Of a stretch of 64,000 bases of DNA, positions 19,756 to 39,144 are shown in pieces. Position 1 is the first letter of the stretch, and every line of letters begins with the position of its first letter. A program made the translations under genes and the position numbers. This DNA is from an uncultured Methanosarcinales archaeon (lineage in GTDB: Archaea; Nanobdellota; Nanobdellia; Woesearchaeales; CALCXY01). The stretch is from contig CAYLOA010000001.1 in the NCBI GenBank assembly GCA_964385185.1, positions 12,507 to 76,506 on the forward strand, written 5' to 3'. The notes below the pieces were generated by a model. The model did no database searches, was not told where the DNA came from, and saw nothing but the letters and a program-made list of their open reading frames with translations.

Positions 19756-20279
19756 GGTATCCGATTCAAACTTCTTAACAAATAATTCTCTGCTTGGCTT
19801 ACTTTCTCTTTCTTTGCACCTTTTTTACCTGTAGTGACAGTCTTCACTTCTTTAGTAGCATCAACTTTTCCAATCTCTTCAGTATGATCTTTAATCTTTA
19901 ACTCAATAGAACTCATCTCTTCCTCAGAAAGTTGCTGAGGTTGCCATTCTAAATTTACACCATCATTTTCCCCACGAGGAAGAATACTCACCGAAAAATG
20001 TGCATGTTTCTGACCTGCAGCTACCCCATTAGTAACAATAATATTCGTCCCTTGCATACCTAAAGCTTCAAAACTAGCAGTGCTCAATTTGTTAGCAATG
20101 GAAAACAATTTCCCTACTGTGAAATCAGGAACTTGCTCAAAAATAGTAAAATGTTCTTTAGGAAAGAGTTGTATCTGGCCCACAACAGCTGGGTCTTCTG
20201 CCATAATAGCTTTAAACTCATCATCTTCATAGATAACCTCTCCTTCGCCGCTACAAAGAGCGCAATTCTTTTTTGCCAT
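19752..20279 (-). CDS. HIT-like protein (paralogue B) with degenerate histidine triad
   Basis: N-terminal CALC (CxxC) and core ...GVAAGQKHAHFSVSILPRGEND. Alignment with the neighbouring paralogue gives an H-x-H-x-S-x-S pattern. Confidence 0.6.
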   Translation of the reverse strand: MAKKNCALCSGEGEVIYEDDEFKAIMAEDPAVVGQIQLFPKEHFTIFEQVPDFTVGKLFSIANKLSTASFEALGMQGTNIIVTNGVAAGQKHAHFSVSILPRGENDGVNLEWQPQQLSEEEMSSIELKIKDHTEEIGKVDATKEVKTVTTGKKGAKKEKVSQAENYLLRSLNRIP

Positions 20280-20378: not shown

Positions 20379-21179
20379 TTAACCAAACAGCCCCGCAATT
20401 GAATCAAGATCTACTTTATCATCCTTTGGCTTCTCTTTAGATTCTTCCTTAGGCTCTTCTTTAGGTTCTTCCTTTTTATCAATATCCTCTTCAAAATCAG
20501 CATCTACTTCTAATCCTCTTCTATTCTTACGAGGTTTTGCAACTTTTTTTGCTTTTGGAGGTTTCTTCTCCTCCTTTGGCTCCTCTTCAGGCTCATCTAC
20601 TCGATCATCGATAACTTCATCATGTAAGTTAAATATTTCATTAACTCTTTTCTTCAATTTAACAAAAGCTTCAGATTGAGCTTTCTTATCCACCTTTCCA
20701 GCAGGAATATTCAAATTCTGCAAAGTATCATTTTCCATTCGTGGAATAATATGAATCATAAAATGTTGAGCTTTCTGTCCGGCAACAATACCATTAGCAA
20801 CAAAAATATTGGTACCCTGGCATTTGAATGCCTTCAAACACTGTTGAGAAAGATGTTTAGCTATAGAAAACACATGAGCCAATTCCTCTTCAGGAATTAA
20901 AGGCATGATTTGATAATGTTCTTTAGGCATCAACAAAATATGTCCAGGATTAGCAGGGTTAATATCCAAAACGGCAAGCACTCTTTCATCTTCATAGACT
21001 TTCTTAGATTGTACTTTCCCAGAAGTAATCTGACAGAATATACACTGTTGCTTTTGAAACTCTTTTAACTCCTCAGGAGACATATTTTTCAATTTCTCCT
21101 GTAATGCCTGTTGCTGTTCAGGAGTCATTTGTTGAGGAGCTTGCTCTTCTGCCATAAGACTTATAAAATAGGACTTCAT
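20379..21179 (-). CDS. HIT-family protein (paralogue A) with long K/E/P-rich C-terminal tail
   Basis: CIFCQI, NPANPGHILLMPKEH and the core AGQKAQHFMIHIIP (an H-x-M-x-H pattern). The C-terminal roughly 90 aa is low-complexity EPKEE-rich. Confidence 0.7.
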   Translation of the reverse strand: MKSYFISLMAEEQAPQQMTPEQQQALQEKLKNMSPEELKEFQKQQCIFCQITSGKVQSKKVYEDERVLAVLDINPANPGHILLMPKEHYQIMPLIPEEELAHVFSIAKHLSQQCLKAFKCQGTNIFVANGIVAGQKAQHFMIHIIPRMENDTLQNLNIPAGKVDKKAQSEAFVKLKKRVNEIFNLHDEVIDDRVDEPEEEPKEEKKPPKAKKVAKPRKNRRGLEVDADFEEDIDKKEEPKEEPKEESKEKPKDDKVDLDSIAGLFG

Positions 21180-21185
21180 ATAAAA

Positions 21186-21974
21186 ATGTTGGTATACATG
21201 CTGATAACACTAGACATTCACAAAAACATTGAAGCAAATGCTTCGGTCTATTATGAAAAAGCTAAGAAAGCTAAGAAAAAAATAGAGGGAGCTACATTAG
21301 CTCTAGAAAAAACAAGGGAAAAAATAGCAAAAGTTAAGGCAAAAAAAGAAGATATGTTGAAACGAGAAGAAGTTGCCAAAACAGCAAGAAAGAAAGAGTG
21401 GTATGAAAAATTCAGATGGTTCAGAACTTCATCAAATTTATTAGTTATTGGTGGTAGAGACGCCACCACAAATGAAATTATTATAAAAAAACATACAGAG
21501 AAAGGTGATTTAGTATTTCACACCGACATGGCAGGATCTCCATTCTTTGTAATCAAAGGAGAAGGAAAAGAAATCCCAGAATCATCCATCAAAGAGACAG
21601 CTGACGCTACCTGTACATTCTCCAGAGCTTGGAAACTAGGAATTTCTACCCAATCAGTATTTTATGTTAATCCAGATCAAGTAACCAAAGAAGCCAATTC
21701 AGGAGAATACCTCACCAAAGGAGCATTTATGGTGCGAGGTAAAACTAATTATACAGAAAATAAAATTAATTGTGCAATAGGGTTTACCGATAAAAAACAA
21801 CCGATGTGTGCATCTCTAGAATCGGTAAAAAAACATTGTAAACATCACTTAGTCATAGAACAAGGAGACAAAAAACCATCTGACCTTGCTAAAACCATTG
21901 CTAAGAAATTAGGTGGTGACTTAGATGATATTATACGAGCACTTCCTTCTGGTGGAATGCAACTACAGAAATAA
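21186..21974 (+). CDS. NFACT-R (DUF814) domain protein, short Rqc2/NEMF-like
   Basis: FRWFRTSSNLLVIGGRDATTNEIIIKKHTEKGDLVFHTDMAGSPFFVIKGEG matches the NFACT-R signature. A K-rich coiled coil precedes it. I moved the start to the ATG at 21186 to avoid overlapping the upstream HIT gene. Confidence 0.6.
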   Translation: MLVYMLITLDIHKNIEANASVYYEKAKKAKKKIEGATLALEKTREKIAKVKAKKEDMLKREEVAKTARKKEWYEKFRWFRTSSNLLVIGGRDATTNEIIIKKHTEKGDLVFHTDMAGSPFFVIKGEGKEIPESSIKETADATCTFSRAWKLGISTQSVFYVNPDQVTKEANSGEYLTKGAFMVRGKTNYTENKINCAIGFTDKKQPMCASLESVKKHCKHHLVIEQGDKKPSDLAKTIAKKLGGDLDDIIRALPSGGMQLQK

Positions 21975-22672: not shown

Positions 22673-22819
22673 ATGAAATTACAATACGACACCAATAATC
22701 AGTTCAAAGTAACTCTTCCTAAGAAGATTCTAGAAGCTATGGGCTGGAAAAAAGGAGATAAAATCAAAGTTGAGTTAGATGCTTTCAACAACTTAGTTCT
22801 AAAAAATGAAGATAAATAA
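22673..22819 (+). CDS. small AbrB/SpoVT-family DNA-binding protein (48 aa)
   Basis: MKLQYDTNNQFKVTLPKKILEAMGWKKGDKIKVELDAFNNLVLKN is a looped-hinge-helix signature. It overlaps the next gene by 14 nt. It is below the ORF-track cutoff. Confidence 0.5.
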   Translation: MKLQYDTNNQFKVTLPKKILEAMGWKKGDKIKVELDAFNNLVLKNEDK

Positions 22820-23576
22820 CATCCTAAAAAGAAAAAACAACTCCAAGAAAGGAGATCATGGTAGAGTCCTCATTGTAGGAGGATCAGAAAAATACGTAGG
22901 TGCACTTACCTTAGCAGGGATTGCAGCCCTAAGAATTACTGATTGGGTCACCATAGCAGCACCAGAAAAAGTGGCTTGGGCAATTAACACTCTAAGCCCA
23001 GACCTCGTAACAGTAAAACTCAAAGGAACTCACATTCAATCTTCACATATTAAGAAACTTACACGTCTTGCGAAGGGGCATGACGTATTACTGCTTGGCA
23101 TCGGTATGGGTCTTACATCAAATAGTACAGCGAGAGCCCTCGCCAAACTCCCATTACCGAAGGTGATTGATGCCGATGCCCTAAAAGCAGTTTCAATAAA
23201 ACAAACAAAAAACGCAATACTTACTCCACACCAAAAGGAATTCACAACGTTACTAAAGAATTCAAAATTAAATAAAAATAATTTCCAAAAAGAACTCAAA
23301 GAAAACATCCTACTCATCAAAGGACCAAGGGATTTTATTTTTTCCCAAAAAAAACAGAAAATAAACAACAAAGGTAATCCAGGAATGACAAGAGCAGGCA
23401 CAGGGGATGTCCTTGCAGGAGTTATTGCTGGATTGTTAGCAAGAAAGGTGTCATTGTTCAATGCTGCAGACCAAGGGGTTCTACTTACCACTAAAGCAGC
23501 CGACCAGTTGAACAAGAAACATAAATATTGTTATCTTGCATCTGAACTAGCAGATGATATCAAGAGGTACATCTAA
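22806..23576 (+). CDS. ADP-dependent NAD(P)H-hydrate dehydratase (YjeF C-terminal/carbohydrate kinase-like)
   Basis: GDHGRVLIVGGSEKYVGALTLAGIAALR and GTGDVLAGVIAGLLAR motifs. Confidence 0.75.
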   Translation: MKINNILKRKNNSKKGDHGRVLIVGGSEKYVGALTLAGIAALRITDWVTIAAPEKVAWAINTLSPDLVTVKLKGTHIQSSHIKKLTRLAKGHDVLLLGIGMGLTSNSTARALAKLPLPKVIDADALKAVSIKQTKNAILTPHQKEFTTLLKNSKLNKNNFQKELKENILLIKGPRDFIFSQKKQKINNKGNPGMTRAGTGDVLAGVIAGLLARKVSLFNAADQGVLLTTKAADQLNKKHKYCYLASELADDIKRYI

Positions 23577-25303
23577 TGACGGGCATATTTGTTGATATGG
23601 GGGTTATCATCATTGCTGCCACTATATTAGGTATCGTCTTTAGGTTCATAAAACAACCATTAATTCCTGCCTATGTGTTAGCAGGAATAATTCTAGGGCC
23701 CAAGATACTCGGAATCATAACTGACTTTGAAGTCATCAAAGTATTAGGGGAAATTGGTATTGCATTTCTATTGTTCGTTGTAGGAATCGAATTAGACTTC
23801 TCAAAACTCAAAGATATTGGGTGGATTGCCTCGATCGGTGGAACCATAAAAACAGTCATTATGTTCTCAATGGGATACATCATTGCCATCTACTCAGGCG
23901 TCTTTGTCCATATTGAAGCAATCTATGTAGGATTAATCGTTGCATTCTCCTCAACCATGATTGTCATCAAACTACTTGCCGATAAAAGAGAGATTGACAC
24001 CCTTCATGGAAGAATTGTGATTGGAATCTTACTACTAGAAGATTTCCTAGCCATCCTTGCCATGTCAATGTTGGGGTCAATTAACGATGTTACGGTGATG
24101 TTCCTCTTTGTAGCTGCATTAAAAGGATTCTTCATCTTTGCCATGATACTGTTCTCCTCAAGATTCATTTTCCCACTGTTATTCAAATTCGCAGCTAAAT
24201 CTCAAGAATTATTATTCCTATTATCTGTAACCACCCTTTTCATCTTTGCAATCGGAATAAACTACATGGGATTCTCAATTGCAATTGGAGCATTCGCAGC
24301 AGGAGTAGCTATTGGAAACCTACCTTACAACTTTCAGATCATCGGGAAAATTAAACCACTGAGAGACTACTTCGCAACATTATTCTTTGCAACATTAGGG
24401 CTAGAATTGGTATTCACTTCAGTAGAAACCATTATTGTGCCATTATTAATCTTATTATTCTTAGTGGTAGTCTTAAAACCTTTAGTAGTAATCGTAATCA
24501 CTTCGGTCTTTGGATACACCAGAAAAACATCCTTCATGGCAGGAATAAACCTAGCCCAAGTATCAGAATTCTCCTTAATAATTGTAGCAGAAGGAATGCT
24601 TATTGGTCAGATTAGTAGAGAAATTTTCTCAATTGCAGTTATCCTTGCCATTATTACAATCGTTATGACTTCATATTTCGTAAAATTCGATAAAGGATTA
24701 TATAGGATTGTAAAACCATTCCTTAAACCCCTAAACTTAATCAGAACCAAAAAGAAAAAACTATCCTACATGCCCAACGAAGGAAAATATAAAGCAATCC
24801 TCTTAGGATATGACCGAATTGGATTCTCAATTATGAAAGCTTTCAAAAAACTCAATAAAAAATTCATCGTGGTAGACTTCAATCCCGATATTATCAAGAG
24901 ATTAATTAAAGAAAAAATCCCGTGTATCTATGGTGATATTGGAGATCTCGAAATATTGGAAAGACTTGATCTTAATCGTGCTGAAATTGTCATTTCAACC
25001 GTCCCAGAACTAAAAGATAACAAAAATCTTATTTCCTATGTCAAAGAAAGAAACAAAAGAGCCTCCATTTTCGTAACAGCCAATAGAATACATGAAGCAT
25101 TGGATCTCTATGAAGCAAAAGCAGACTATGTAATCCTCCCACATTTCCTCGGAGGACACCACGTATCCTTAATGTTAGAAAATACCACAGGAAATCTCTC
25201 CTCATTATTAAAAAATAAGATTAATCACATTACAGAGTTAAAAAAGAGAAAAGACATGGGATTCGAACATCCTAAAGTAAGAAGGGATAAGGAAGAAACC
25301 TAA
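23576..25303 (+). CDS. monovalent cation:proton antiporter (CPA2/Kef-type) with C-terminal RCK/TrkA-N domain
   Basis: About 12 TM helices followed by a Rossmann-like RCK domain (KAILLGYDRIGFSIMKAF...VVDFNPD). It overlaps the upstream stop as TAATG. Confidence 0.85.
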   Translation: MTGIFVDMGVIIIAATILGIVFRFIKQPLIPAYVLAGIILGPKILGIITDFEVIKVLGEIGIAFLLFVVGIELDFSKLKDIGWIASIGGTIKTVIMFSMGYIIAIYSGVFVHIEAIYVGLIVAFSSTMIVIKLLADKREIDTLHGRIVIGILLLEDFLAILAMSMLGSINDVTVMFLFVAALKGFFIFAMILFSSRFIFPLLFKFAAKSQELLFLLSVTTLFIFAIGINYMGFSIAIGAFAAGVAIGNLPYNFQIIGKIKPLRDYFATLFFATLGLELVFTSVETIIVPLLILLFLVVVLKPLVVIVITSVFGYTRKTSFMAGINLAQVSEFSLIIVAEGMLIGQISREIFSIAVILAIITIVMTSYFVKFDKGLYRIVKPFLKPLNLIRTKKKKLSYMPNEGKYKAILLGYDRIGFSIMKAFKKLNKKFIVVDFNPDIIKRLIKEKIPCIYGDIGDLEILERLDLNRAEIVISTVPELKDNKNLISYVKERNKRASIFVTANRIHEALDLYEAKADYVILPHFLGGHHVSLMLENTTGNLSSLLKNKINHITELKKRKDMGFEHPKVRRDKEET

Positions 25304-25352
25304 GAAAGATTAATAAACTCTCCACACTAAGGAGAAATGAAGAAAAAAGAAA

Positions 25353-26909
25353 ATGGCAGACGTTTGGAACCCACACTTGGAAGCTTCATCTAAAATATTG
25401 ATGAAGTTTGGATTTATTAAGAAAGAGTATGCTAAAGAGTACTCCATTCTTCCAGAAAAAGAGAGAAATAAGAAAATAGACAATCTAACAGAAGATGAAG
25501 CAGACAAACAAGCTGATTTGGATGAAGAAGAGGTAGGAAAAGATCAATTAGTCTTAGTAAATTTCCCCAAACCTACACATAAATATAGATTAGTGTATGA
25601 AACACACAAAGGAAACATAGAGGAAACCTATTTTTGGATTCTTAACTATCTCAGATATGATATGCACTTCACCCAGATTGAAAAAATAACAGATATCTTT
25701 GCAGCTGCTGAAACAAGTGCGTTTGAAGGTGTGAGACAACAACGAGTAGGACTCCAACAAGACAAAGTCTCTGGATTTTTAGCCACCATTGGAAAAATGG
25801 TCAAAGAATTGTTCCAATTAGTGAGAGAACTTAGAATTATCGATGAAAGATTGGCCTACTATGAAGACTCATTCACCACATCTAAAAGTCATGAGAGTGC
25901 TGAAATCACATTGAAAGGTATTTGGATCGATCAAGTAGAGGGAGGATCAAAAAACCCAGCTTCCATTTTCGGATTATCTAAAGAACTACAATTTACAACA
26001 TTACCTGATCTCTTTTTTGCAATCCACCCTAAAGAACCAACCGATGTGGATGAAGTTGTGGATGCACTAGAATTCAATCGAAAGGTCAAAGAAGTCCTCA
26101 AAAGAAAATTAAGATCATTTATGGAATGGAAAGTAAGAACCTATGATGAGATGAAAAATAGAAGAATTTTCACCATTCAATATCTGAGACAACACTTTGA
26201 TATCATCAAAATGTATATGCAATGGGTAAAACCCTACTTAAGAACCATCAAAAGATTAGGATACGACATTAAGAAGACAAAATCTCCTGATCTTGTTGCC
26301 GCTTTCGAAGGATCCATGATTGAGGTAGAATTTGCTGGAGTATTCTACCCAAGAGGAAACAAAGAGTATAGAACTGTCTTGGTCATGCATTTTGACCTAC
26401 GTACACGTCCACAGATGAACTTTCAGGCAGAAGGATACAATCGAGGCCCACTACATACAGGAGAAGCTAAAGTCACCTGGAGAGGGTATACCTGGACCGA
26501 TGAAGAACTCAAAAAATACATTGGTATGCGAGAATCAGAAGACATGGAGTTATTAGCTTCCGTAGATCGATCAGTAGAAGCAGCCATGGAAGCTTTAGGA
26601 GATGAACTAGAAGGATATCTGCAACAAGCAGGAGAAGATATCTCCTTTGAAAAAGAACTAAAAGGAAAAAAGAAAGAAAAAGAGAAGCCAAAAATGCCAG
26701 GATTATTTGATCCGTTATTTTCAGTCTTCAAAGGAGTAGGTGATGCAGCTAAGTTTGCAACACCTGACATTAAGATGAAAAAAAAGAAAGCAACATTAAG
26801 TTCCTATCAAAAAGAAAAAGAAATTGCTGCTGCTAAAAAAGATTTAGTAGTAAGAATGTGGACTTGTTATAAAAATTACAAGAAGAGTCATAAAATGATT
26901 GCGTGGTAA
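25353..26909 (+). CDS. hypothetical protein (518 aa), first gene of uncharacterised operon
   Basis: Long complex ORF with no recognisable motif. The C-terminus is K/E-rich. Confidence 0.6.
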   Translation: MADVWNPHLEASSKILMKFGFIKKEYAKEYSILPEKERNKKIDNLTEDEADKQADLDEEEVGKDQLVLVNFPKPTHKYRLVYETHKGNIEETYFWILNYLRYDMHFTQIEKITDIFAAAETSAFEGVRQQRVGLQQDKVSGFLATIGKMVKELFQLVRELRIIDERLAYYEDSFTTSKSHESAEITLKGIWIDQVEGGSKNPASIFGLSKELQFTTLPDLFFAIHPKEPTDVDEVVDALEFNRKVKEVLKRKLRSFMEWKVRTYDEMKNRRIFTIQYLRQHFDIIKMYMQWVKPYLRTIKRLGYDIKKTKSPDLVAAFEGSMIEVEFAGVFYPRGNKEYRTVLVMHFDLRTRPQMNFQAEGYNRGPLHTGEAKVTWRGYTWTDEELKKYIGMRESEDMELLASVDRSVEAAMEALGDELEGYLQQAGEDISFEKELKGKKKEKEKPKMPGLFDPLFSVFKGVGDAAKFATPDIKMKKKKATLSSYQKEKEIAAAKKDLVVRMWTCYKNYKKSHKMIAW

Positions 26910-26918
26910 ATCGAAAAA

Positions 26919-27506
26919 ATGCCAAAACTAGACGAATTAAAAAAATTACATCCTGAAGATAGATTGAAGAGGTTAAAAGAATTAGAAAAAGAAAGAAAAG
27001 AAGAAATTGAAGAAGCAAAAGAGATGGTTAAACAATCTAATGAAGAGATTGCCGAAGAAGACCTCATCAAACGGATGAATCCTCCTGAAGCTGAAGAAAT
27101 ACAAGTAGAAAAACTATTCAGACCTCGAGAAGAACCTATCGAATCAAAAGTAGAACCCTTAAAACCTGAAGTTGAAGAAGAAGCTTCTTTAGAATCAGAA
27201 TTAAGTGGTGTCCCTTCACTCCCTCCAGAACAAGAGATTGCTCAAACAGCTATGTATCAAGTAAATCAACTTGAACAAGATCTAAGAGGACAATCAACCG
27301 ATTCCATCTATAAATCCATGTCTACTATGATGGAACAACCGCAAGATTCCATGTCACAATACCAAAGAAATAAAATAGAAGCAGCATATAATATCATGAA
27401 AGAGCGAGATGACCTCTACGGAGACTCAGCTGGTCAAAAAATTCAAGGATCAGCATCCAAGATACTCTCTTTACATGAAAGAATAAAACAGGACTACCAA
27501 AGCTAA
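26919..27506 (+). CDS. hypothetical acidic coiled-coil protein (195 aa)
   Basis: Starts 10 nt after the previous stop. Composition is E/K-rich (KRLKELEKERKEEIEEAKEM...). Confidence 0.55.
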   Translation: MPKLDELKKLHPEDRLKRLKELEKERKEEIEEAKEMVKQSNEEIAEEDLIKRMNPPEAEEIQVEKLFRPREEPIESKVEPLKPEVEEEASLESELSGVPSLPPEQEIAQTAMYQVNQLEQDLRGQSTDSIYKSMSTMMEQPQDSMSQYQRNKIEAAYNIMKERDDLYGDSAGQKIQGSASKILSLHERIKQDYQS

Positions 27507-27507
27507 A

Positions 27508-29613
27508 ATGCAATTTAACCAATCGTACCAATCACCGATGGAAAAGCCGGAAGTCATTGATCTAGATAACCATGCACCGTATTCTGCCGAAAGGCATGAA
27601 GAACCCGATATTGAGAAGCCTATTTTCCCTATGAATCGTCTGGGACAATCAGTAACAGAAGGATCACGATTTGGATCATTCTTCCAGACTGCTACCGGAG
27701 CAATTAGAGCAGGAGCAGGAAAAGTAGAATTACAACTGGGTATGGGTGGAGGCGCCGAACCCGTAGGAGCTGAAGCATATGGAGTTGAAGCAAGAGAAGC
27801 CCTGAGAGAAATGGCCAAAGCAAATCAAGTTGAATTCTCATCAGTCCACTCACCATCACAAATTGGAAACATGAGTGGTTTCGCAGGACCAGAAAGAGGA
27901 TTTGATGATGCACAAAGAAAGGTAGAGTTAGATGAAGTAAAATCAGCCATAGACTTTGCCGCAGATACAGCAGGAAAAGGGGCAGTTGTTGTCCACACAG
28001 GAGAATATCAGAGACCTATTTCAGAAGCAGCTTGGGCCCATGATGAGGAAGGTAATAGAATCTTCACAGGATATGAAGAAGAGGAAGAACGTGCAATCCT
28101 CCCATTAGTAGATAAAAGAACAGGAAGTGTTATCCAACAAGTGAGGAAAAACCAAATAGTTGCAAGAGCACAATGGAATAGGTATGACGAGACCAATAAA
28201 AAATTACAAGGAGAAAAACATGGAGAATCTTATGTGGATGATAAAGGTCAACACGTTGATCAAGGGGATTATGTCGACTATGAAGGAAACAAAGTAAATT
28301 TCAAAGATCGAGTTCCTGTCTATGACGAAGAAAAAAATACCTTCATTGTTAAGCAACAAAAATGGGAAGATTTCGAACAAGAAGCTGATGAACGAAATAG
28401 GGAATTAGCGAGAGAATTAGGAAAAGATATGAGTGAATTAACAGATGAGGAAAGAATTACACCAGAAAAAGCCTTATTGATAGCTACCACAGAAACGCAA
28501 GAAAAGATTGCAGAAGGATGGGCAGATAATTACGGATTACGATTACGAGATACCTTCAAAGAAATTGATAAATTGAAACATGCTCTTGCCCATTGGAAGA
28601 AAGTGGAAGAATCCGTTCCTGAAGATGATCAATATCAACTTTTACAAGGAGAATCAGGAAAACAGTTTTCACAACAGACCAATTTAATCCCAGAAGAAAG
28701 AAAATTACCTTCAGAAATTATTGCAAAAAATTTGAATAATTCAAGAGAAGAAATTGAGTCCTTAAAAGAAATGGTTACCGGTCAAAAACAACAAGCTGAA
28801 GAGGCAAGAATCCAAAGAGAAAACGCAATCACCATTGAAAACTATGCAAAAAATAAATCCATTAAATCATATGCTGAATTAGGAATATACGCCCTGGATG
28901 TATCTGCAGATAATCCTCACACAAAAGGAGATTTGTTTATTGCTGCAGAAAATATTTTCCCAGAAATGGGATATGGATCACATCCACAAGAAATGACTGA
29001 ATTGATCCAAAAATCTAGGAAAAAAATGGCAGAACAATTAGTCACGAGTAGAAATTTCTCAGAAGAACAAGCTCAACAAGCAGCCGAAGAACACATTAAA
29101 GCGACCATTGATCTTCAACATTTAGGGATGTGGAGGAAAAACTTTGTAGCGCAAGGCGATGAATCTAAACAAGAAACAGATCAACGTTTTGAAAAATGGT
29201 ATATGGAAGAATTCAAAAAAATGGAAGAGAAAGGTATTATCGGACATATGCACGTTGTTGACGGTTTTGGAAGACAACATACTCACTTGCCCCCTGGCCA
29301 AGGAACGTTACCAATTAAAGAAGCATTACAATATCTGAAGAAAAAAGGATACAAAGGAGATCTTACTTCAGAAGGTTTTGCTGAAGGACAATTCGGCCCA
29401 GCTAGAATTATTTCTAAATTCTGGGAGACGAATGGGTCACCCATCTATTCAAAAGGATTTAGTGGAACTACAGGCGCTGCATCATCACCTCAATCTAAAT
29501 GGTCTAATGTTGAACACTCTTATTTTGGACAGACATACTCACCTAACTTCGTCTTTGGCTCATATAGTCCAAGTAATGATTGGTCATTATGGTCACAGAC
29601 TCCAATGGAATAA
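27508..29613 (+). CDS. xylose isomerase-like TIM-barrel (AP endonuclease family 2-like) protein with large charged insertion
   Basis: Starts 2 nt after the previous stop. By eye, VHSPSQIGNMSGF, AVVVHTGEY, ALDVSADNPH/LFIAAENIF, GHMHVVDGFGRQHTHLPPGQGTLP and LTSEGF resemble the metal-binding strands of Nfo and sugar-phosphate-isomerase barrels. Residues roughly 170-455 are charged low-complexity sequence. Confidence 0.55.
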   Translation: MQFNQSYQSPMEKPEVIDLDNHAPYSAERHEEPDIEKPIFPMNRLGQSVTEGSRFGSFFQTATGAIRAGAGKVELQLGMGGGAEPVGAEAYGVEAREALREMAKANQVEFSSVHSPSQIGNMSGFAGPERGFDDAQRKVELDEVKSAIDFAADTAGKGAVVVHTGEYQRPISEAAWAHDEEGNRIFTGYEEEEERAILPLVDKRTGSVIQQVRKNQIVARAQWNRYDETNKKLQGEKHGESYVDDKGQHVDQGDYVDYEGNKVNFKDRVPVYDEEKNTFIVKQQKWEDFEQEADERNRELARELGKDMSELTDEERITPEKALLIATTETQEKIAEGWADNYGLRLRDTFKEIDKLKHALAHWKKVEESVPEDDQYQLLQGESGKQFSQQTNLIPEERKLPSEIIAKNLNNSREEIESLKEMVTGQKQQAEEARIQRENAITIENYAKNKSIKSYAELGIYALDVSADNPHTKGDLFIAAENIFPEMGYGSHPQEMTELIQKSRKKMAEQLVTSRNFSEEQAQQAAEEHIKATIDLQHLGMWRKNFVAQGDESKQETDQRFEKWYMEEFKKMEEKGIIGHMHVVDGFGRQHTHLPPGQGTLPIKEALQYLKKKGYKGDLTSEGFAEGQFGPARIISKFWETNGSPIYSKGFSGTTGAASSPQSKWSNVEHSYFGQTYSPNFVFGSYSPSNDWSLWSQTPME

Positions 29614-29695
29614 GCCATAGAGTTGATAATTCTAGCTCAAAGTATAAACATTTATAAAGATAAAAGCAATTTATTCTATTAGTGCGTGGTTTATT

Positions 29696-32623
29696 ATGAT
29701 ATCAAATGTAAAAACACTATTCCATAGTCCAACTATAGTATCAGCGCCAGCTGCACAGTTTCATGCACACTTTTTTTCTGAAGAACAATTTTTAACAGGT
29801 GAAGGAGAATTAAAAAGTACTCCTGTGAGTAAAAAAACTTCTGATGAATCCAGATTGTTTGTAAGACTTGAAATTTCAGGTCCTAGCCTTGTTGCAAGAA
29901 TTGTAAGCGAATATGCACAACCTGGAATTGTAAATAAAGTTATGCAATCACTCTATTCTATTGATAGATCAGCAGCTTCTCTAGTAAATACTGAAAAATC
30001 ACAATCCTATCAACATGCAATTCAAACAGAATTTCCTACAATTAAGAGTAGACCTGCTGCAAATTATAATATTGAAGCTAAAGAAAAACCTGCAATAATT
30101 CATGAATTGCAACCTGCTCCAGAAGCACAAGTGCAAGTCTATGTCCCTCAAGATGTTTTAGTACAAACTACAGAAAGAGAGTTTGAACAAACAACAAAAA
30201 TAAAGGAACAACTCTACGCACAATATAATAATGATCAGGTATCAAGTTATCAGGCTACTCATGAATCACATATGAATGAAAATCCATTCTATCAAGTTTC
30301 AGGATTACATCTCCTTCAAGAAAAAGACATTGTAGAATATAATCCTAATCAACCTGAAAATAGAGAGATGGATGAAAGAAAGATTGAATATACTGCTCAG
30401 CCACAGATAGAAAATATCAAAAATAATTATTTAGAACACAATGCTGTATCATTTGAATTACCTATATTCAATCAAGAAAAAGAAATTCTACGACCTCAGA
30501 GAGATTTTGAACAGAGAAAAAATAACTATCAACCAAAGGAAAAAATAAGAAGAGACTTTCCAACATATACTAAAATTGATATGTCAATTGACTTAGAAAA
30601 TCCTACTAGAGATCATAGTCTAGATACAGAATCAATATCATATGAAATAACTGCAGAAACTTCAACTCCAATACATCAAACTTCAAGATTAGAAGCAAAA
30701 ATCCAACCACAAAATCAAACTGAAACATACACAGCAAAATCTACTCAAGAGAGACAATCTTCAGATATTACTTGGGAAGTACAGTCTTCTGAAGATGCAC
30801 GTCCTTTTCTTGGACATTCAATTGAATACTCTCACAAAACAGATTCTACTCCATCTCGTGATACAGATTACTCAGAACCAGCTATCACATACTCAGAAGA
30901 AGAAAGATTAGAAATTAAACTTGATCAAGATCCACATAAAGAAAATAACGAAAGACAGCCAAAAAGAAAAAGAGAATATCACCAGAAGAAGGAATCCAAA
31001 AAAGAACCTACTAAAAAATCTCATAAAATTGAATACAAAGATAATCCAACAACATCAACATATGAACAAAAGAAAGAATATACAGCAGAACCAACTAAAA
31101 TACATGAATTCAGAGAAAAAGAATTGAATATTCCAGAGTTTAGAAATGAATCTCATGAATTTCAATATCAAAAAGCAAAAGAAATTAAAACAGAAGTAAT
31201 CAAAAGTAACCAATTTGAAAAAAGAAATGAAGAATATGATTCTCCAGAATTAAAGGATACAAAAATCCATGACTTTAATCAATATAAAATAAAAAACAAT
31301 GCTTACACATCTAATCTAGATTCATTAGTCACAGAAAGTGAAGTTGAATCAGCACCACCTTGTGCTGTGAATTCATTAGAAACTGACAAGCCATGTACTG
31401 TAAATAGTTTAGAAAATATTGAAGACGGAACCTCTATAGTGGGTATTGTAAAAACAACTCAGGCAAATAACTGTTATGCACCTAAAACAGAAGAATTTTC
31501 AAAAGTAGAATCAACAAGAGATTTTGAATCATTTGGAGTGGACATATTAGCACAAAAAGGAATCGAATCAGTTGAAGATTTAATTGATAAAGAAGGAAAT
31601 ATTGACATAACAAAATTCGGAGATTCATATTCCTTACTGGGTGGAGGAGTAATGATAACCATCACAGAAGAGCAAGAAAATAGTTCTTTCGCATATGGAA
31701 TTAGAGGACAAGATAGATCAGATGTGGGAACTACCTATACAGGCATGGCAAATGAAGTAGGAGCTATACTCTTTAAAATCTTTGAAAAAAATGGTTTAAC
31801 CTTAGACATCACCACAATGGATGAAATCATTGAAGGAGAAAACTACACCGGTTCAAATCTTTATGTCACCGAAGTTACCGGTGGAAAAAGAGGATTAGAG
31901 AAAAAATTAAACCAAGTGATAGGTAAAGAAATAACTATTAACGATGTTCAATATTCAATTGTAGTAAAAGATGCTACAACAGGCCAAGAAATCTCTTGTA
32001 ACGCTTCTACAGGATTAACACAAGGAAACTACACTATAGATGTTATTACTAAAATTGGATCTGCAAATTTACAATCAGAAGTGTCTATGTCATTAGATGA
32101 AATAAACCTTGATAGGAACTTAGATAATGGATATGAAACTCCAAAATTTGCACATCTTGTCCATGAAGACACCGGAGAAAGACTTGATGGATATGCACTC
32201 CCAGAATTGGCATTTGAGTCTAATGGATATGAAACCATCATGGATCAATTCATAAGTTCATTAGAATCTGCAAATGCAGACTTTGAAGTAAAAACAATGA
32301 ACACACAAGAATATGGACAGGAGAAAGGAACCAACTTAAGATATGTTCGAACCATTGAAGGAGTGATTGACAATTATATGAAATTACACCCTAATGCACA
32401 AAAAGAAAAAGTAGGAATCTTATTAATGGAAACTGAATCTGGAAAAATTATGAGAGAACCAGGATATGGCGCTGAAGGATTGGACTATGCAGAAAAAGCT
32501 GGAAAGTCATATGTCCCAGTAATTTATGAATTAGGTGCTGATTTATCAAACTCACATGTTGAATTGCCTAAGCAAAATCGTGAAAATACAATTGATACCA
32601 TCTTCTCTAACTTAGCAGCATGA
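29696..32623 (+). CDS. hypothetical protein (975 aa) with central Q/E/N/K-rich disordered region and about 430-aa C-terminal globular domain
   Basis: No signal peptide. Contains a short internal repeat (PPCAVNSLETDKPCTVNSLEN). It overlaps the downstream methyltransferase by 4 nt (ATGA). Confidence 0.6.
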   Translation: MISNVKTLFHSPTIVSAPAAQFHAHFFSEEQFLTGEGELKSTPVSKKTSDESRLFVRLEISGPSLVARIVSEYAQPGIVNKVMQSLYSIDRSAASLVNTEKSQSYQHAIQTEFPTIKSRPAANYNIEAKEKPAIIHELQPAPEAQVQVYVPQDVLVQTTEREFEQTTKIKEQLYAQYNNDQVSSYQATHESHMNENPFYQVSGLHLLQEKDIVEYNPNQPENREMDERKIEYTAQPQIENIKNNYLEHNAVSFELPIFNQEKEILRPQRDFEQRKNNYQPKEKIRRDFPTYTKIDMSIDLENPTRDHSLDTESISYEITAETSTPIHQTSRLEAKIQPQNQTETYTAKSTQERQSSDITWEVQSSEDARPFLGHSIEYSHKTDSTPSRDTDYSEPAITYSEEERLEIKLDQDPHKENNERQPKRKREYHQKKESKKEPTKKSHKIEYKDNPTTSTYEQKKEYTAEPTKIHEFREKELNIPEFRNESHEFQYQKAKEIKTEVIKSNQFEKRNEEYDSPELKDTKIHDFNQYKIKNNAYTSNLDSLVTESEVESAPPCAVNSLETDKPCTVNSLENIEDGTSIVGIVKTTQANNCYAPKTEEFSKVESTRDFESFGVDILAQKGIESVEDLIDKEGNIDITKFGDSYSLLGGGVMITITEEQENSSFAYGIRGQDRSDVGTTYTGMANEVGAILFKIFEKNGLTLDITTMDEIIEGENYTGSNLYVTEVTGGKRGLEKKLNQVIGKEITINDVQYSIVVKDATTGQEISCNASTGLTQGNYTIDVITKIGSANLQSEVSMSLDEINLDRNLDNGYETPKFAHLVHEDTGERLDGYALPELAFESNGYETIMDQFISSLESANADFEVKTMNTQEYGQEKGTNLRYVRTIEGVIDNYMKLHPNAQKEKVGILLMETESGKIMREPGYGAEGLDYAEKAGKSYVPVIYELGADLSNSHVELPKQNRENTIDTIFSNLAA

Positions 32624-33135
32624 AATCTATTCAAGAATATTTCAAACAAGAAGACTCTAATTCTTTAGAAGAACATAATCTACCTTACGTCTATACAAAT
32701 AAAGGTGTATGGGCAGGAGCAAATCTAGAGGCATTAGAAGAATTCTTTAAACTCATAAAACTAGAATCCTTCAAATCATTTATAGACTTAGGGTGTGGTG
32801 ATGGGAGAGTTACCATCATGGCAGGCAATTTTACAAATGCTCTTGGCATTGAATCCGACATGAATCTTATAGGCAAAGCCCATAAAGCCATAAAAGAATT
32901 TAACAGCAAAGCTGAAGTAAAAATGGGAGACTTTTTTGATCTTGACCTTGCAAAATTCGATATCATTTTTATAAATCCAGATAAAGGATTCAATTATGGA
33001 TTAGAAAAAAAATTAATGAATGAACTAAAGGGCACGTTAGTAGTGTACAATAACTTATTTCTACCCAGATTTCTAAAACAAGGAGAAACCCATGTGTGTA
33101 AGGAAATTCCCATTACACTGTATACACAAGATTAA
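32620..33135 (+). CDS. small class I SAM-dependent methyltransferase
   Basis: Motif I is IDLGCGDGRV, with an acidic residue after beta-2 (IESD). Length is only 171 aa. Confidence 0.6.
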   Translation: MKSIQEYFKQEDSNSLEEHNLPYVYTNKGVWAGANLEALEEFFKLIKLESFKSFIDLGCGDGRVTIMAGNFTNALGIESDMNLIGKAHKAIKEFNSKAEVKMGDFFDLDLAKFDIIFINPDKGFNYGLEKKLMNELKGTLVVYNNLFLPRFLKQGETHVCKEIPITLYTQD

Positions 33136-33229
33136 TCATTCTATAATAGTAAACAAACCTTATATACGCTTTTCTTAAAATAAGAGGTGGAGGGGAATAA
33201 AGAGTAGTTTAACTTAGAAAAAGCACTAC

Positions 33230-34036
33230 ATGGTAAAATTCAAAATAGAGCGGAGAGATCATCCTCAAGTAAAGAGATATTCCTCTGAAGAGATTAAAAT
33301 AGCTAGAAAACTAGCAGACAGAATTTTAGAAGAATTTGGTTCATTTGTGAAATCAATTGTATTATTTGGATCTGCAGCGAGAGCTCAAGGTAAATCAAAA
33401 CCAGGCGATGTAGATGTATTAGTCATTGTAAACGATCTGAATATGGTCCTCAGTGGAGAAGCAGTAGAGACATACAGAGTTATCATGGAAAGATTAGTAC
33501 GTGACACATCAGATAGATTACACGTGACCACATTAAAACTATCCAACTTCTGGGATTATGTAAGATTAGGAGATCCTTTAGCAATTAATATCTTAAGAGA
33601 TGGAGTAGCTTTGATTGATACAGGAATCTTTGATCCTATGCAAGCATTGCTCTATATGGGAAGAATACGTCCTACCTATGAAGCTATCTTCACCTACTAC
33701 TCACGAGCACCTGCTACATTAGCAAACTCAAAATGGCACGTGTTACAAGCAACATTAGACCTGTACTGGGCAGTAATAGATGCTGCGCATGCAGCGTTAA
33801 TGAAACATGGTGAAATACCTCCATCTCCTGCTCACGTAGCAGATATGATGGAAAAAACTTTAGTTAAAGATAACCTTATTGAAAAACGATATGTAACTAC
33901 TATGAAAGATTTCTATGTCTTAGCTAAGAAAATCATGCACAGAGAATTAAAAGAAGTAACAGGAAAACAATTTGATCAATACTATAAACTTTCTGAAGAT
34001 TTTGTTAAAAGAATAAAGAAAATTATTGAACCATGA
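33230..34036 (+). CDS. nucleotidyltransferase (Pol-beta superfamily) with C-terminal helical domain
   Basis: LFGSAARAQGKSKPGDVDVLVIV matches the GS...DxD nucleotidyltransferase motif. A helical domain of about 160 aa follows. Confidence 0.6.
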   Translation: MVKFKIERRDHPQVKRYSSEEIKIARKLADRILEEFGSFVKSIVLFGSAARAQGKSKPGDVDVLVIVNDLNMVLSGEAVETYRVIMERLVRDTSDRLHVTTLKLSNFWDYVRLGDPLAINILRDGVALIDTGIFDPMQALLYMGRIRPTYEAIFTYYSRAPATLANSKWHVLQATLDLYWAVIDAAHAALMKHGEIPPSPAHVADMMEKTLVKDNLIEKRYVTTMKDFYVLAKKIMHRELKEVTGKQFDQYYKLSEDFVKRIKKIIEP

Positions 34037-34658
34037 ACATCTGAATATTCTACCAAAACCTTTTAAATGTCCATCTAATCCTATTACTATGTCATTCGAA
34101 GAACAAAAGAAAGTACAACTCGAAAAAAAGGATGCTTCTATTCAAGGAGAGATTGACATTGAAATTAGATATTTAGTAGACAAATTAAACGAGTATCCTT
34201 TCTTCTACACCACATCAAGTTGTGCAGGAAGAACATTACTGTTATCCAAAAAATCTGATAAAAAGTTTAACATTCAATGGATATACAAAGATCATAAAGA
34301 AGCAAACCTGAAAAAAATACAGGAAACTCTGAAAGAATTGCCAGATAATCCTGTCTGGATCAAACAAGAATCTGCAATACTCCACATCTGTTGTAAAGAT
34401 ATGGAAACAGCAGAAAGATTATTAGTTATTTGTAAAAATACGGGATTTAAATTCTCAGGAATATTATCAACAAAGAAAAGAATCATTGTCCAAGTAATGT
34501 CAAGTGAGAATTTAGAAACAATAGTCGCAGACAAAAAACAACTCTTAATCTCAGAAGAATATCTCATAAGATTAGTAGATGAATGCAATAAAAGAATGGA
34601 AAGAAATATATCTAGAATTAAGAGATTACATGACGGAATAGTTGAGGAGTTCAAATGA
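34026..34658 (+). CDS. taw3: tRNA wybutosine-synthesizing protein 3 homologue (Taw3/TYW3)
   Basis: The conserved TYW3 signature FFYTTSSCAGR is present. Length 210 aa. Confidence 0.7.
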   Translation: MNHEHLNILPKPFKCPSNPITMSFEEQKKVQLEKKDASIQGEIDIEIRYLVDKLNEYPFFYTTSSCAGRTLLLSKKSDKKFNIQWIYKDHKEANLKKIQETLKELPDNPVWIKQESAILHICCKDMETAERLLVICKNTGFKFSGILSTKKRIIVQVMSSENLETIVADKKQLLISEEYLIRLVDECNKRMERNISRIKRLHDGIVEEFK

Positions 34659-35430: not shown

Positions 35431-36645
35431 CTAACGACCTATGGCTTGAATAGCCAGTGCAGTGGTATATAACCCACTCGTGGCATTCTGAGGTATGATA
35501 AACTTTAAACTAAGTGGAATAGTTGCATCCAATCCTAAATTAATATTCTTTAGTAAATTCTGTGAAGCAGAGGAGAAATCTATCCCATTAAAACTAAACA
35601 GTGTATCACTAAAACTTCTCCCTTCACTGACATTTTTAGCACGAACACTCAAATCTAAAGGAATATTTCCAATATTTTTTATCGTAGGACTATCTGTGGT
35701 ACTTACTTTTTCGTCCCCTTTGATAAAAACCTCTTCACCGGGTCGTGCCTTTTGAACACTAATTGCAGAAGTGTCTAAAAAAATACCGGCCAAAGGCAAT
35801 ACAGTGACCGCAAATTGAAGAGGTAGTGTGGTATGTTTGCCCGTGGCGGTAATCGTGATATTATACTCTCCTGGTAATTGGTGATACCAAAAGGAAAACG
35901 TTCCAGTGTATTGAGAATGACTGTCATTAAGAGTTGCACCTTCCAATAAAACTGTTGAATTAAATATGTCCATCTTCACAGAAGTTATGACATCATTTCC
36001 TCCAAGAGTTATGTTTACAAAAACAGATCTCTTTTTTCCAGGAACAGGACTCACCTGTACTCCTTCTGAAAATAAATCGTCATCAATAGTAAAATTATAC
36101 AATGATAGTGTGTAAGCCTCTACTTCAACAGAAATAAGTAAAAGTCCATCAGATTGAACTGTACTACTGTTTCTTGGATCTGGTGAAAGAGCCTCAAATG
36201 TATTCGTATAACTTCCATTATCTAATTTTCTTTGTAAAGATTCTCTCACATCAACTGCATCTTCTCCCCAAGTTACTGTATCAACTATCTTTTCACCATC
36301 TAGAAGAGAAACAAATCCATCATCATTTGCAAGTGTTATCGCTTCAGCATAATCTGATTCATCCCAATTGAGATCGTCTCGTTTCTCCCATCCTGTATCA
36401 GTGACCAAATAATAAGAACCAGGAAGAATATGAGCTTCTGAAGGTAAGGTTACATCTTTAACAGAAGATTTAGTTGATAGAACCCATTCACTTATGGAAA
36501 CAGTAGTATCACCATTATTAAACAACTCTACAAACTCTCCTCCATTCTCTGTCCCCTTGGGATCAAAATAGACCTCAGTGATTAAAACTTCAGCCTGAAC
36601 AACACCACAAACTAATAATAACATAATTACTGCAATAATTCTCAT
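35431..36645 (-). CDS. secreted lamin-tail-domain (LTD) protein with Ig-like domains
   Basis: After a signal peptide, LITEVYFDPKGTENGGEFVELFNNGDTTVSISEWVLS matches the LTD consensus (I-EV...EFVEL-N-G...LSGW-L). Confidence 0.65.
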   Translation of the reverse strand: MRIIAVIMLLLVCGVVQAEVLITEVYFDPKGTENGGEFVELFNNGDTTVSISEWVLSTKSSVKDVTLPSEAHILPGSYYLVTDTGWEKRDDLNWDESDYAEAITLANDDGFVSLLDGEKIVDTVTWGEDAVDVRESLQRKLDNGSYTNTFEALSPDPRNSSTVQSDGLLLISVEVEAYTLSLYNFTIDDDLFSEGVQVSPVPGKKRSVFVNITLGGNDVITSVKMDIFNSTVLLEGATLNDSHSQYTGTFSFWYHQLPGEYNITITATGKHTTLPLQFAVTVLPLAGIFLDTSAISVQKARPGEEVFIKGDEKVSTTDSPTIKNIGNIPLDLSVRAKNVSEGRSFSDTLFSFNGIDFSSASQNLLKNINLGLDATIPLSLKFIIPQNATSGLYTTALAIQAIGR

Positions 36646-36738: not shown

Positions 36739-39144
36739 CTAAACTTTAGGCTTCAACAATTGTAAAAACAAAGCTCCTACTAATCCAATTACAATCAAAT
36801 TAGCTAAAATTAAAGCTGCAAAGTACAATGAAGAATCTTCCACTTGCTCAACAGTTACAAATCCACTTGCAACACTAGGTGTTGTAGGAGTTGATGGAGT
36901 TGGTGAAGTAGTAGTTGTAGGTGTTATAACAGTAACTTCTCCATCTGTTGTAGTGGTCACAGTTGGTGGTACCACAACTACAGGGACAGGCACATTCGTT
37001 TGACACTCAGCAATCTTTAAAATTTCAGTTTCAACATCAATAACCTTGTCTGTATCATAGAATAATCGCAGCTCAATAGGATAATCTCCTGATGCAACAC
37101 TATCTGGAACTCTAAAGTTAAATGTTTTCTCGAACGTATTATCTGAATTATCAATATCTTCATCCAATTCAAATTGTTCTTTGAAATCGATTCCTAAGTC
37201 ACTGCTCTTAACATGTAATACACTCTCATCCTCATCGGATGATCCAATATTTTGAGCAACTACTCGAAGGAGTCCATTCTTTTTACAAGTCAATATATTT
37301 GATTCTAATTCAGATCGTGCAATAATAAGTTTATGTCTATCTCTATCTACACGAAGTACCGTTCTAAACACAGCTTCGTGATCATTTCCATCCTCATCTT
37401 CTCCCTCAACCTCAATAAGTACGTCGTACTCATCTTCTTCAGCGTCTTCAGGAATATTGAAGGTAATCGTCTCAGTCTCGTCTTCATTTGCGTCAACATC
37501 GAATTTTTGAGATTCTTCTTCAAGTTCATCTCCATCATCAATATCGTCAATAGTTATAGTGATAAAAACATCTTCAATTTTAATATCTTGAGAAGAAGTA
37601 AATTTGTTTCGAATAGTAACTTCAAATTCAACCTCATCTCCAGGTTTTGCTCGTTTACTGATAGTACTTCCATCTACAATATTATTATCGGTACTATCAT
37701 CCACAGTAACATCAATATCGTCAATAATTAATTTACCTTCAATAAGTGCTTTAACACTAACGGAGGCGTTTAATTCTGCAGAACGTACTTGGATTGTTCC
37801 CAAAGTTTGATCTCCAGCTGTCTCACCCTCAGGTGCAAACAAAGTAATAGTAAAACTTCTAGATGCTCCAGAAGCAAGTGAACTAGTACTATTATCTGAA
37901 ACGCTAAAATTAAACCTACTAGGAATATTAGTATTAACTAAAGTTACATTGTTCAATGCATCATTTCCTGTGTTTGTAATACTAAATGTCTTTGATTTAC
38001 TCTCATTGGTATCTAGAGTTCCAATATCAACCGGTGATTCTGAAAAACTCAGAGTAAAAGTTGAAGGAGAAACACTCAAAGTAAACGTACTATTGACTGG
38101 AACTAATCCTGGATAATTTAGTGTAATATTTCCTTGATATGTTCCATTTGTAGTAGTACTAGGAATAGAGATATTCAATGTAGGAACTGTGGTTCCAGCA
38201 AAAGCAGTAGCAAAATTAGCAGGTAAAGTAACATTACCAGCCGCAATTCGGAAAGATCCATTATTGGTATCAACCAAATCAGTAATTGTAAAATTCAGTA
38301 CAGCTAAATCAGTATTTCCAGTATTACTTACCAAAATACTTGCATTTGCAGTCTTTCCGATAACTCCGGAAGTTGCTGATGCATTAATTGTTGCATTATC
38401 AATACCCAAAACTAGTGTATTGACAGATAAAACAACAGTATCTGAATTATTAGCTGAAAAATTAAAACTTGTAGTATAGGTATCGTTAAATGTTCCTGAT
38501 GGTACTGTTAATGTGTAGTTAAAAGTTGTTGAACCAGTTACAGGTACAGTAACTGGACTAGATACATTATATACAATTGGTGCAGAAACATTCTGTCTAC
38601 TTCCTTGTAAAGTAATGGAGGGTAAATCCACAGTTACATTAAAATCTGAGAGGCTAGTGGAAAGGGTAACTTCACCAGTTACAGTCCCTGATGCATTTGC
38701 ACGAAAATTATCTGAACTTAAAACACCGTTCAAAATATCTTTAGATGCCAAATTAAGAGTGATTGTATGTAAAGCTGATTGTGAAACATTATTTGTAAAG
38801 TTAACAACACCCACCAAAGATTCATTGTAGATAGTAGTTGGCGCTGTTACACTAATATTAATAGAAACACTCGTGCCATTAGTAATATTAAGAGGACTTG
38901 TAGCATTGTAAGTTAAAGCTAATACTTGTGTGGTAACCCCACCAACAAAGGTAGCATTAATAGGAAGAGTAAAGGTTTGATTTTCTCCAGCATTATCGTT
39001 GGATAAGACTACAGTTGACGTTAAAACTTGACTTTGAGTAGCATCAAATGTTGCAGAACTTGGGCTTACTGAAATTTCTCCAGCAGCAAAAACAACTAAT
39101 GTAAGAATCAATGCAATACCTATAAATGTAAATTGTTTATCCAT
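36739..39144 (-). CDS. cell-surface (S-layer-like) glycoprotein with Thr/Pro-rich stalk and C-terminal TM anchor
   Basis: Signal peptide, dozens of N-x-S/T sequons, an acidic DDIDDGDE block, a TTTTDGEVTVITPTTTTSPTPSTPTTPS linker and a terminal hydrophobic helix ending in KPKV. Confidence 0.65.
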   Translation of the reverse strand: MDKQFTFIGIALILTLVVFAAGEISVSPSSATFDATQSQVLTSTVVLSNDNAGENQTFTLPINATFVGGVTTQVLALTYNATSPLNITNGTSVSINISVTAPTTIYNESLVGVVNFTNNVSQSALHTITLNLASKDILNGVLSSDNFRANASGTVTGEVTLSTSLSDFNVTVDLPSITLQGSRQNVSAPIVYNVSSPVTVPVTGSTTFNYTLTVPSGTFNDTYTTSFNFSANNSDTVVLSVNTLVLGIDNATINASATSGVIGKTANASILVSNTGNTDLAVLNFTITDLVDTNNGSFRIAAGNVTLPANFATAFAGTTVPTLNISIPSTTTNGTYQGNITLNYPGLVPVNSTFTLSVSPSTFTLSFSESPVDIGTLDTNESKSKTFSITNTGNDALNNVTLVNTNIPSRFNFSVSDNSTSSLASGASRSFTITLFAPEGETAGDQTLGTIQVRSAELNASVSVKALIEGKLIIDDIDVTVDDSTDNNIVDGSTISKRAKPGDEVEFEVTIRNKFTSSQDIKIEDVFITITIDDIDDGDELEEESQKFDVDANEDETETITFNIPEDAEEDEYDVLIEVEGEDEDGNDHEAVFRTVLRVDRDRHKLIIARSELESNILTCKKNGLLRVVAQNIGSSDEDESVLHVKSSDLGIDFKEQFELDEDIDNSDNTFEKTFNFRVPDSVASGDYPIELRLFYDTDKVIDVETEILKIAECQTNVPVPVVVVPPTVTTTTDGEVTVITPTTTTSPTPSTPTTPSVASGFVTVEQVEDSSLYFAALILANLIVIGLVGALFLQLLKPKV

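Follow-up and report, generated by a model that had tools for sequence, protein, structure and literature searches.

What fold, and what activity, should be assigned to an archaeal protein whose resemblance to a known enzyme superfamily breaks off in the middle and resumes further on? The question is raised by TIM701, a gene on the forward strand of a 64,000-nucleotide stretch of contig CAYLOA010000001.1 (GenBank assembly GCA_964385185.1, positions 12,507 to 76,506), hereafter the window. The source is titled an uncultured Methanosarcinales archaeon and is placed by GTDB in the Woesearchaeales. TIM701 comes last in a tight trio, p518, p195 and TIM701, and its product is a known fold bearing a previously uncharacterised inserted module. 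On balance, we favour the reading that TIM701 is a cytoplasmic, metal-dependent, xylose-isomerase-like enzyme with lid and docking parts, that it belongs to the branch represented by MJ1311 of Methanocaldococcus jannaschii, and that it is probably a phosphoester hydrolase.

A barrel split by an insertion

The open reading frame (ORF) of TIM701 is genuine and encodes 701 amino acids. The original prediction had proposed a triosephosphate isomerase (TIM) barrel of the xylose-isomerase/AP-endonuclease-2 type (AP, apurinic/apyrimidinic), with a profile match that would fall into two segments, and both expectations were borne out. PF01261 (AP_endonuc_2) matches TIM701 with 57.1 bits (E = 2.9e-15; gathering cut-off 31.1) in two stretches, residues 82-178 against profile positions 20-103 and residues 527-627 against positions 150-233. 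When residues 178-441 are removed in silico, a single stretch spans positions 20-233 of the 249 in the profile, at 58.9 bits. Because the match is split, and then continuous once these residues are deleted, we conclude that an insertion breaks the barrel. The motifs quoted in the original prediction are all present in the protein where it had placed them: VHSPSQIGNMSGF at residues 113-125, AVVVHTGEY at 159-167, ALDVSADNPH at 462-471, LFIAAENIF at 476-484, GHMHVVDGFGRQHTHLPPGQGTLP at 579-602 and LTSEGF at 619-624.

An AlphaFold2 model, built from a 57-sequence family alignment and no templates, has a mean predicted local distance difference test score (pLDDT) of 84.4 and a predicted template modelling score of 0.81; pLDDT falls below 50 only at residues 1-36, 385-390 and 648-701. 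Eight strands alternate with helices in the model (45-50, 72-76, 109-114, 158-163, 476-481, 530-535, 578-582 and 618-621). TIM701 is thus predicted to fold into a single closed (beta/alpha)8 barrel assembled from both halves, as had been anticipated. Membership in the PF01261 xylose-isomerase-like superfamily is borne out by the score above the gathering cut-off, the closed barrel, and Glu-Asp-His-Glu ligands on the last four strands.

The barrel is flanked by two extensions that are predicted to be disordered. The extreme N-terminus carries a conserved family motif, M-x-F-x3-Y-Y-x-P-M-D-R, and the aromatic-rich C-terminal tail contains a series of near-invariant residues (W665, Y672, G674, P679, G684, Y686, P688, S689, L694, W695, P699 and E701). 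The tail is a candidate partner-binding or oligomerisation peptide. A second variable segment lies between strands 5 and 6 (28951-29112, residues 482-535). It has a short form of 54 residues in TIM701 and about 19 of the 57 family members, while most members have about 77 residues and a few have 89-96.

An orphan module on the catalytic face

The insert comprises about 264-265 residues (178-441, nucleotides 28039-28830) and is placed by the model in the loop joining strand 4 to helix 4, at the C-terminal end of the barrel where the catalytic face lies. The original prediction had described it as some 280 residues of E/K/Q-rich, low-complexity coiled coil at about 28015-28870. The large insertion is real, with the slightly narrower limits given above, and it is indeed charged (38% D/E/K/R; 31-34% E/K/Q). 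Low complexity is not found, since every 12-residue window has an entropy of at least 2.2 bits. Helical structure, too, accounts for one part of it: residues 286-441 form long helices, but residues 178-285 are beta-rich.

We refer to the two parts as the lid and the stalk. The beta-rich part is predicted with good confidence, carries the invariant residues E192, V201, D202 and G206, and would act as a lid. The stalk is a long antiparallel hairpin, E-rich and charged, of 140-164 residues across the family; block-mean pLDDT is above 90 except at about residues 371-400, and falls to 50 near the hairpin tip. From its position on the catalytic face, the insert probably shapes the active site besides acting as a spacer.

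The insert alone has no Pfam match. We searched it exhaustively by phmmer against 1.84 billion representative proteins and obtained 94 matches only. Each full-length match is a protein of 600-770 residues in which the matched segment lies at about residues 175-440, and the short matches are fragments that either retain flanking barrel motifs or start in mid-protein. As all 94 share the architecture of TIM701 or are fragments, we consider the insert an orphan module confined to the TIM701 family. Among 60 listed PDB matches of the superfamily, none covers a comparable insert.

Family and distribution

Relatives of TIM701 form more than 365 clusters of proteins of about 640-760 residues, with 40-50% identity over their whole length including the insert. 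In databases they are named "hypothetical protein", "TIM barrel protein" or "sugar phosphate isomerase/epimerase" and come from Woesearchaeota and Nanoarchaeota. When one genome per species was scanned, a relative was encoded by 333 species genomes, essentially all titled Woesearchaeota, Nanoarchaeota, Nanoarchaeia or Nanobdellota. The gene and its syntenic neighbours are also carried by a batch of metagenome-assembled genomes titled "uncultured Methanosarcinales" (loci L005, L010-L012, L017, L020, L021 and others), and one TIM701-bearing bin (L039) is titled "Candidatus Aminicenantes bacterium". These two titles are probably labelling or binning errors, or contamination.

Such a distribution bears on the possibility that the insert is an artefact: misassembled sequence, two fused genes, or an ordinary barrel gene interrupted by a mobile or intein-like element. 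The unusual architecture is all that speaks for it. The same architecture occurs uninterrupted throughout the clusters and species genomes counted above, the insert measures 229-271 residues in all 57 aligned members, and it shows no intein or transposase signature. It is modelled at high confidence, packed against the barrel, and it occurs nowhere else among the proteins searched by phmmer. We give this explanation virtually no weight; the comparative data exclude it.

Regional conservation, expressed as mean identity to TIM701 in the 57-member alignment, is given in Table 1. We found no description of the family in the literature, and neither TIM701 nor its neighbours gave PHROGs matches or useful NCBIfam matches.

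A predicted multi-metal site

The residues H114, H163, E481, D535, H538, H582 and E622 are invariant in all 57 members. D585 is kept in 56, H591 in 53 (Asp in the remaining four) and H593 in 52. In the model, every one of these conserved ligand candidates is located at the C-terminal end of one of strands 3-8 or in the loop that follows strand 7, and E481, D535, H582 and E622 end the last four strands as an E-D-H-E tetrad. The trinuclear zinc centre of Escherichia coli endonuclease IV (Nfo) is formed by H69, H109, E145, D179, H182, H216, D229, H231 and E261. According to the model, residues of TIM701 match all nine of these positions (H114, H163, E481, D535, H538, H582, H591, H593 and E622), with strand order and D-x-x-H spacing both preserved, and H591 stands where Nfo has Asp229. 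A pairwise global alignment places three of the nine, Nfo H216, D229 and H231, on H582, H591 and H593; we assigned the other six by strand order, since no profile alignment to Nfo reached significance.

The closest sequence and structural relative is MJ1311 (PDB 3WQO, a "D-tagatose 3-epimerase-like protein"). In a HMMER alignment, H114, H163, H582, D585, H591, H593 and E622 fall on H, H, H, D, D, H and E of MJ1311. Foldseek against the PDB returns the same top match over about 205 aligned columns with weak E-values, the insert hampering the alignment. The MJ1311 structure reportedly conserves the nine endonuclease IV ligands and lacks a DNA-binding groove. The match transfers no activity to TIM701, because MJ1311 is itself uncharacterised.

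Several other invariant residues have, to our knowledge, no counterpart: E74, E166, R169, E486, H492 and E495, together with three at the insert's base, W176, E192 and D202. Conservation within the protein peaks in the strands and loops of the active site; over residues 481-500, for instance, the mean top-residue frequency is 0.90. This pattern is what a catalytically dead barrel, with a purely structural, coiled-coil role in a complex formed with p518 and p195, would have to explain. The long helical hairpin, the conserved disordered tail and the presence of a cassette with coiled-coil-rich orphan proteins would suit such a scaffold. We nevertheless regard it as very improbable, and because the metal ligands are invariant we take TIM701 to be a working enzyme.

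Proposed function

Phosphoester chemistry fits TIM701 better than the "sugar epimerase" label because the nine ligand positions of Nfo and MJ1311 are filled. The predicted two- or three-metal centre would most likely hydrolyse a phosphoester, either a phosphodiester or a phosphomonoester in a nucleic-acid or other substrate, rather than epimerise a sugar. The conserved charged residues E192, D202, R204 and R268 of the lid may form part of a remodelled substrate pocket. The stalk and the aromatic C-terminal tail could mediate oligomerisation or docking, and likely docking partners would be p518 and p195, encoded just upstream.

The database label suggests a different enzyme, a sugar or sugar phosphate isomerase or epimerase that holds a single Mn, Co or Fe on E481, D535, H582 and E622 and uses the insert for oligomerisation only. 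The E-D-H-E tetrad that such an enzyme uses is present in TIM701, but the site goes beyond it: five conserved histidines (H114, H163, H538, H591 and H593) fill extra endonuclease IV/MJ1311 ligand positions that are absent from epimerases, and in the alignments H591 and H593 stand opposite a gap or non-ligand residues of the D-tagatose 3-epimerases. The best NCBIfam scores fall below their cut-offs (fructoselysine 3-epimerase, 30.2 bits against 305; hydroxypyruvate isomerase, 14.7 against 353), the database names were assigned automatically, and, wherever the window and the related loci are annotated, no sugar-catabolic genes adjoin TIM701. An epimerase is therefore unlikely, but it retains an appreciable chance.

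A second alternative takes the resemblance to endonuclease IV literally. TIM701 would then be the AP endonuclease of its lineage, a functional orthologue of Nfo in base-excision repair, with the insert and tail recruiting it to repair or replication partners. At the level of sequence, TIM701 does not belong to the endonuclease IV family. A hidden Markov model of the barrel scores -1.8 bits against E. coli Nfo (nominal E = 0.087 in a one-sequence search), with an hhalign probability of 0.1, and hhalign of the full family alignment against Nfo is not significant. A profile search of PDB sequences returned no endonuclease IV chain at E <= 10, and the NCBIfam nfo model does not match. Furthermore, the protein has a net charge of -35 and an acidic loop after strand 5 (E486, E495), the 265-residue module occupies the face where DNA would bind, and p518 and p195 show no repair signatures. 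A conventional nfo or xth may lie elsewhere in the genome, of which the window covers 64 kilobases. We consider a role in base-excision repair doubtful.

Several observations weigh against the proposal that TIM701 is a multi-metal phosphoester hydrolase with lid and docking parts. After MJ1311, the next best sequence matches are sugar epimerases (UlaE, 2.6e-5; D-tagatose 3-epimerase, 1.7e-4). Six of the nine Nfo ligand assignments come from strand order in a predicted model and from the Nfo structure, not from a residue-level structural alignment, and the ligands of the third site vary in four to five of the 57 members. The placing of the lid over the active site is read from the insertion point only. 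The net charge of TIM701 is unusual for a nucleic-acid enzyme. Finally, unrelated flanking genes are also often kept beside TIM701 (an Na+/H+ exchanger in 28 of 83 related loci, a methyltransferase in 34 of 83, and also a nucleotidyltransferase), and part of the synteny with p518 and p195 may reflect conserved gene order within one archaeal order rather than functional coupling.

Cassette partners and genomic context

The original prediction had suggested that TIM701 may belong to a larger assembly encoded by neighbouring genes. Among these neighbours, conserved candidate partners are confined to the two genes upstream, p518 and p195. The partners proposed for TIM701 are themselves orphans. 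Homologues of p518 form more than 1613 clusters at 50-60% identity, with no Pfam domain and no informative PDB match. Its AlphaFold2 model (pLDDT 77.5) combines a long helical hairpin with two beta-sheet modules and has a basic, aromatic helix at the C-terminus. In p195, conservation is limited to an N-terminal helix motif, ELKKLsPEERIKKLKELEE, and p195 and seven positional orthologues give no consistent Pfam signal. Of the 83 related loci that we compared, 71 extend upstream by 2.5 kilobases or more. In 62 of these 71 (87%), the TIM701 gene is preceded on its own strand by a homologue of p518, and 53 of the 62 have an ORF of 150-250 codons between the two. As a conserved unit of three genes, the cassette is confined to archaea of the Woesearchaeales type. 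The three genes probably form one operon, as argued by their tight spacing (9 and 1 nucleotides) and by the retention of p518, which is more frequent than that of the unrelated flanking genes.

TABLE 1. Coordinates of the p518-p195-TIM701 cassette in the window and of the regions of TIM701, with mean identity to TIM701 by region.
Feature	Residues	Coordinates	Strand	Mean identity	Description
p518, first cassette gene	518 aa	25353..26909	+		9-nucleotide gap to p195
p195, small acidic protein	195 aa	26919..27506	+		stop codon 1 nucleotide before TIM701 start; junction TAA-A-ATG
TIM701	701 aa	27508..29613	+		xylose-isomerase-like (PF01261) TIM barrel, predicted metalloenzyme, with internal insert; stop codon included
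N-terminal region	1-44	27508..27639	+		predicted disordered; pLDDT <50 for 1-36; 8-91 aa across family
Barrel, N-terminal half (beta1-beta4)	45-177	27640..28038	+	62%	four strands; PF01261 profile 20-103; E74, H114, H163, E166, R169, W176 invariant (57/57)
Insert part 1, beta-rich putative lid	178-285	28039..28362	+	46%	strands 197-202, 208-213, 218-221, 281-284; block-mean pLDDT 86-96
Insert part 2, helical stalk	286-441	28363..28830	+	35%	helices 286-304, 319-369, 401-438; long antiparallel hairpin
Barrel, C-terminal half (alpha4, beta5-beta8)	442-647	28831..29448	+	52%	four strands; PF01261 profile 150-233; MJ1311 alignment; bears E481, E486, H492, E495, D535, H538, H582, D585, H591, H593, E622
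C-terminal tail, aromatic-rich	648-701	29449..29610	+	61% (last 40 residues, 662-701)	predicted unstructured in monomer; pLDDT <50

One could envision a more specific arrangement, in which p518, p195 and TIM701 form a machine particular to the Woesearchaeales, with a multi-metal phosphoesterase resembling endonuclease IV mounted on a coiled-coil stalk and docked through its tail to p518, processing scavenged or remodelled phosphodiesters. In p518 there are KA1-like alpha/beta modules and a basic aromatic terminal helix; elsewhere, KA1-like modules and basic aromatic helices bind acidic membranes. For host-dependent archaea, the substrates could be molecules such as host-derived lipids or nucleic acids. 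We put little confidence in this scenario. If it were true, the machine would be a new enzyme-scaffold system without counterpart outside the DPANN archaea.

The window is chromosomal DNA of low G+C content (about 35%) from a DPANN archaeon and encodes MetRS, NFACT, HIT proteins, PGK, GAPDH, ELP3 and TYW3. The cassette lies in a recurrent Woesearchaeal block at 22806-34658 that comprises an NAD(P)HX dehydratase, an Na+/H+ exchanger-TrkA gene, p518, p195, TIM701, a small methyltransferase, a nucleotidyltransferase and TYW3. Because this block of functionally unrelated genes recurs, adjacency alone is weak evidence for a shared function.

Directly upstream of p518, at least 24 of 58 related loci carry a small RNA-binding gene of the CRS1/YhbY type (for example at 8047-8358 in L001, 7724-7957 in L002 and 7744-7998 in L003). 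It is not present in the window, where merely 49 nucleotides separate 25303 from 25353. The window (21111-21974) and L001 each have an NFACT-R gene close by.

Downstream of TIM701, the forward-strand gene at 29696-32623 encodes a 975-residue protein that is largely repetitive or of low complexity, with a net charge of -58 and an AT-rich upstream region of its own. It has no Pfam, NCBIfam or PHROGs match and appears to be lineage-specific. We rejected it as a member of the assembly, since none of the 83 related loci contains a homologue.

Further afield, two adjacent reverse-strand genes at 35431-36645 and 36739-39144 encode cell-surface-like proteins, one with a lamin-tail domain (LTD) and one of 801 residues with weak NPCBM-associated, DUF4832 and DUF4625 matches. 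Two adjoining HIT-domain genes are also on the reverse strand (19752-20279 and 20379-21179), the second of which has a DcpS_C-like region as well.

Significance

In the tiny genomes of Woesearchaeota and other DPANN archaea, a large share of the conserved genes have no known function, and we know of no pure cultures of these archaea. TIM701 and p518 retain 40-60% identity among relatives sampled from the 333 species genomes, and conservation of this kind usually marks a core function. With a predicted site of the endonuclease IV type, a unique module and two orphan partners, TIM701 is a clearly defined subject for structural and biochemical study. The analysis also corrects a "sugar epimerase" annotation that has been propagated automatically. 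Inserted domains are common in TIM barrels generally; the finding resolves no long-standing question and is moderately surprising.

Comparison with known systems

TIM701 differs from its closest relative in size and in surroundings. MJ1311 is a single domain of 293 residues without an insert between strand 4 and helix 4, whereas TIM701, at 701 residues, has the insert and both N- and C-terminal extensions. MJ1311 has neither the conserved aromatic C-terminal tail nor the p518/p195 cassette, both of which characterise the TIM701 family. In the loop after strand 7, MJ1311 has the motif D-E-H where the family has H-x-H.

Endonuclease IV (PDB 1QTW, 3AAM and 2X7W) has 285 residues, compared with the 701 of TIM701, which is strongly acidic and carries its 265-residue module on the DNA-binding face. 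Endonuclease IV has DNA-recognition loops and AP-site-flipping residues such as Arg37, Tyr72 and Leu73. The tyrosine of its H-x-x-Y motif appears to have no conserved counterpart in the TIM701 family, where the consensus after the first histidine is H-x-P-x-Q-I-G-N-L-S-G, with no conserved Tyr at +3; at such distance the alignment of this loop to Nfo is unreliable. The D-tagatose and D-psicose 3-epimerases and UlaE are set apart by a single metal, by the absence of the histidines at strands 3 and 4 and of the H-x-H loop, and by the lack of an insert.

Parallels for the architecture of TIM701 come from other TIM barrels that carry a domain in a beta-alpha loop, namely pyruvate kinase with its B domain, alpha-amylase with its domain B, and IMP dehydrogenase with its pair of CBS domains. 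These enzymes belong to other superfamilies, and their inserts are unrelated to that of TIM701. Like TIM701, however, each bears a loop module on the catalytic face; in these enzymes the module serves as a lid, a regulatory element or an assembly element.

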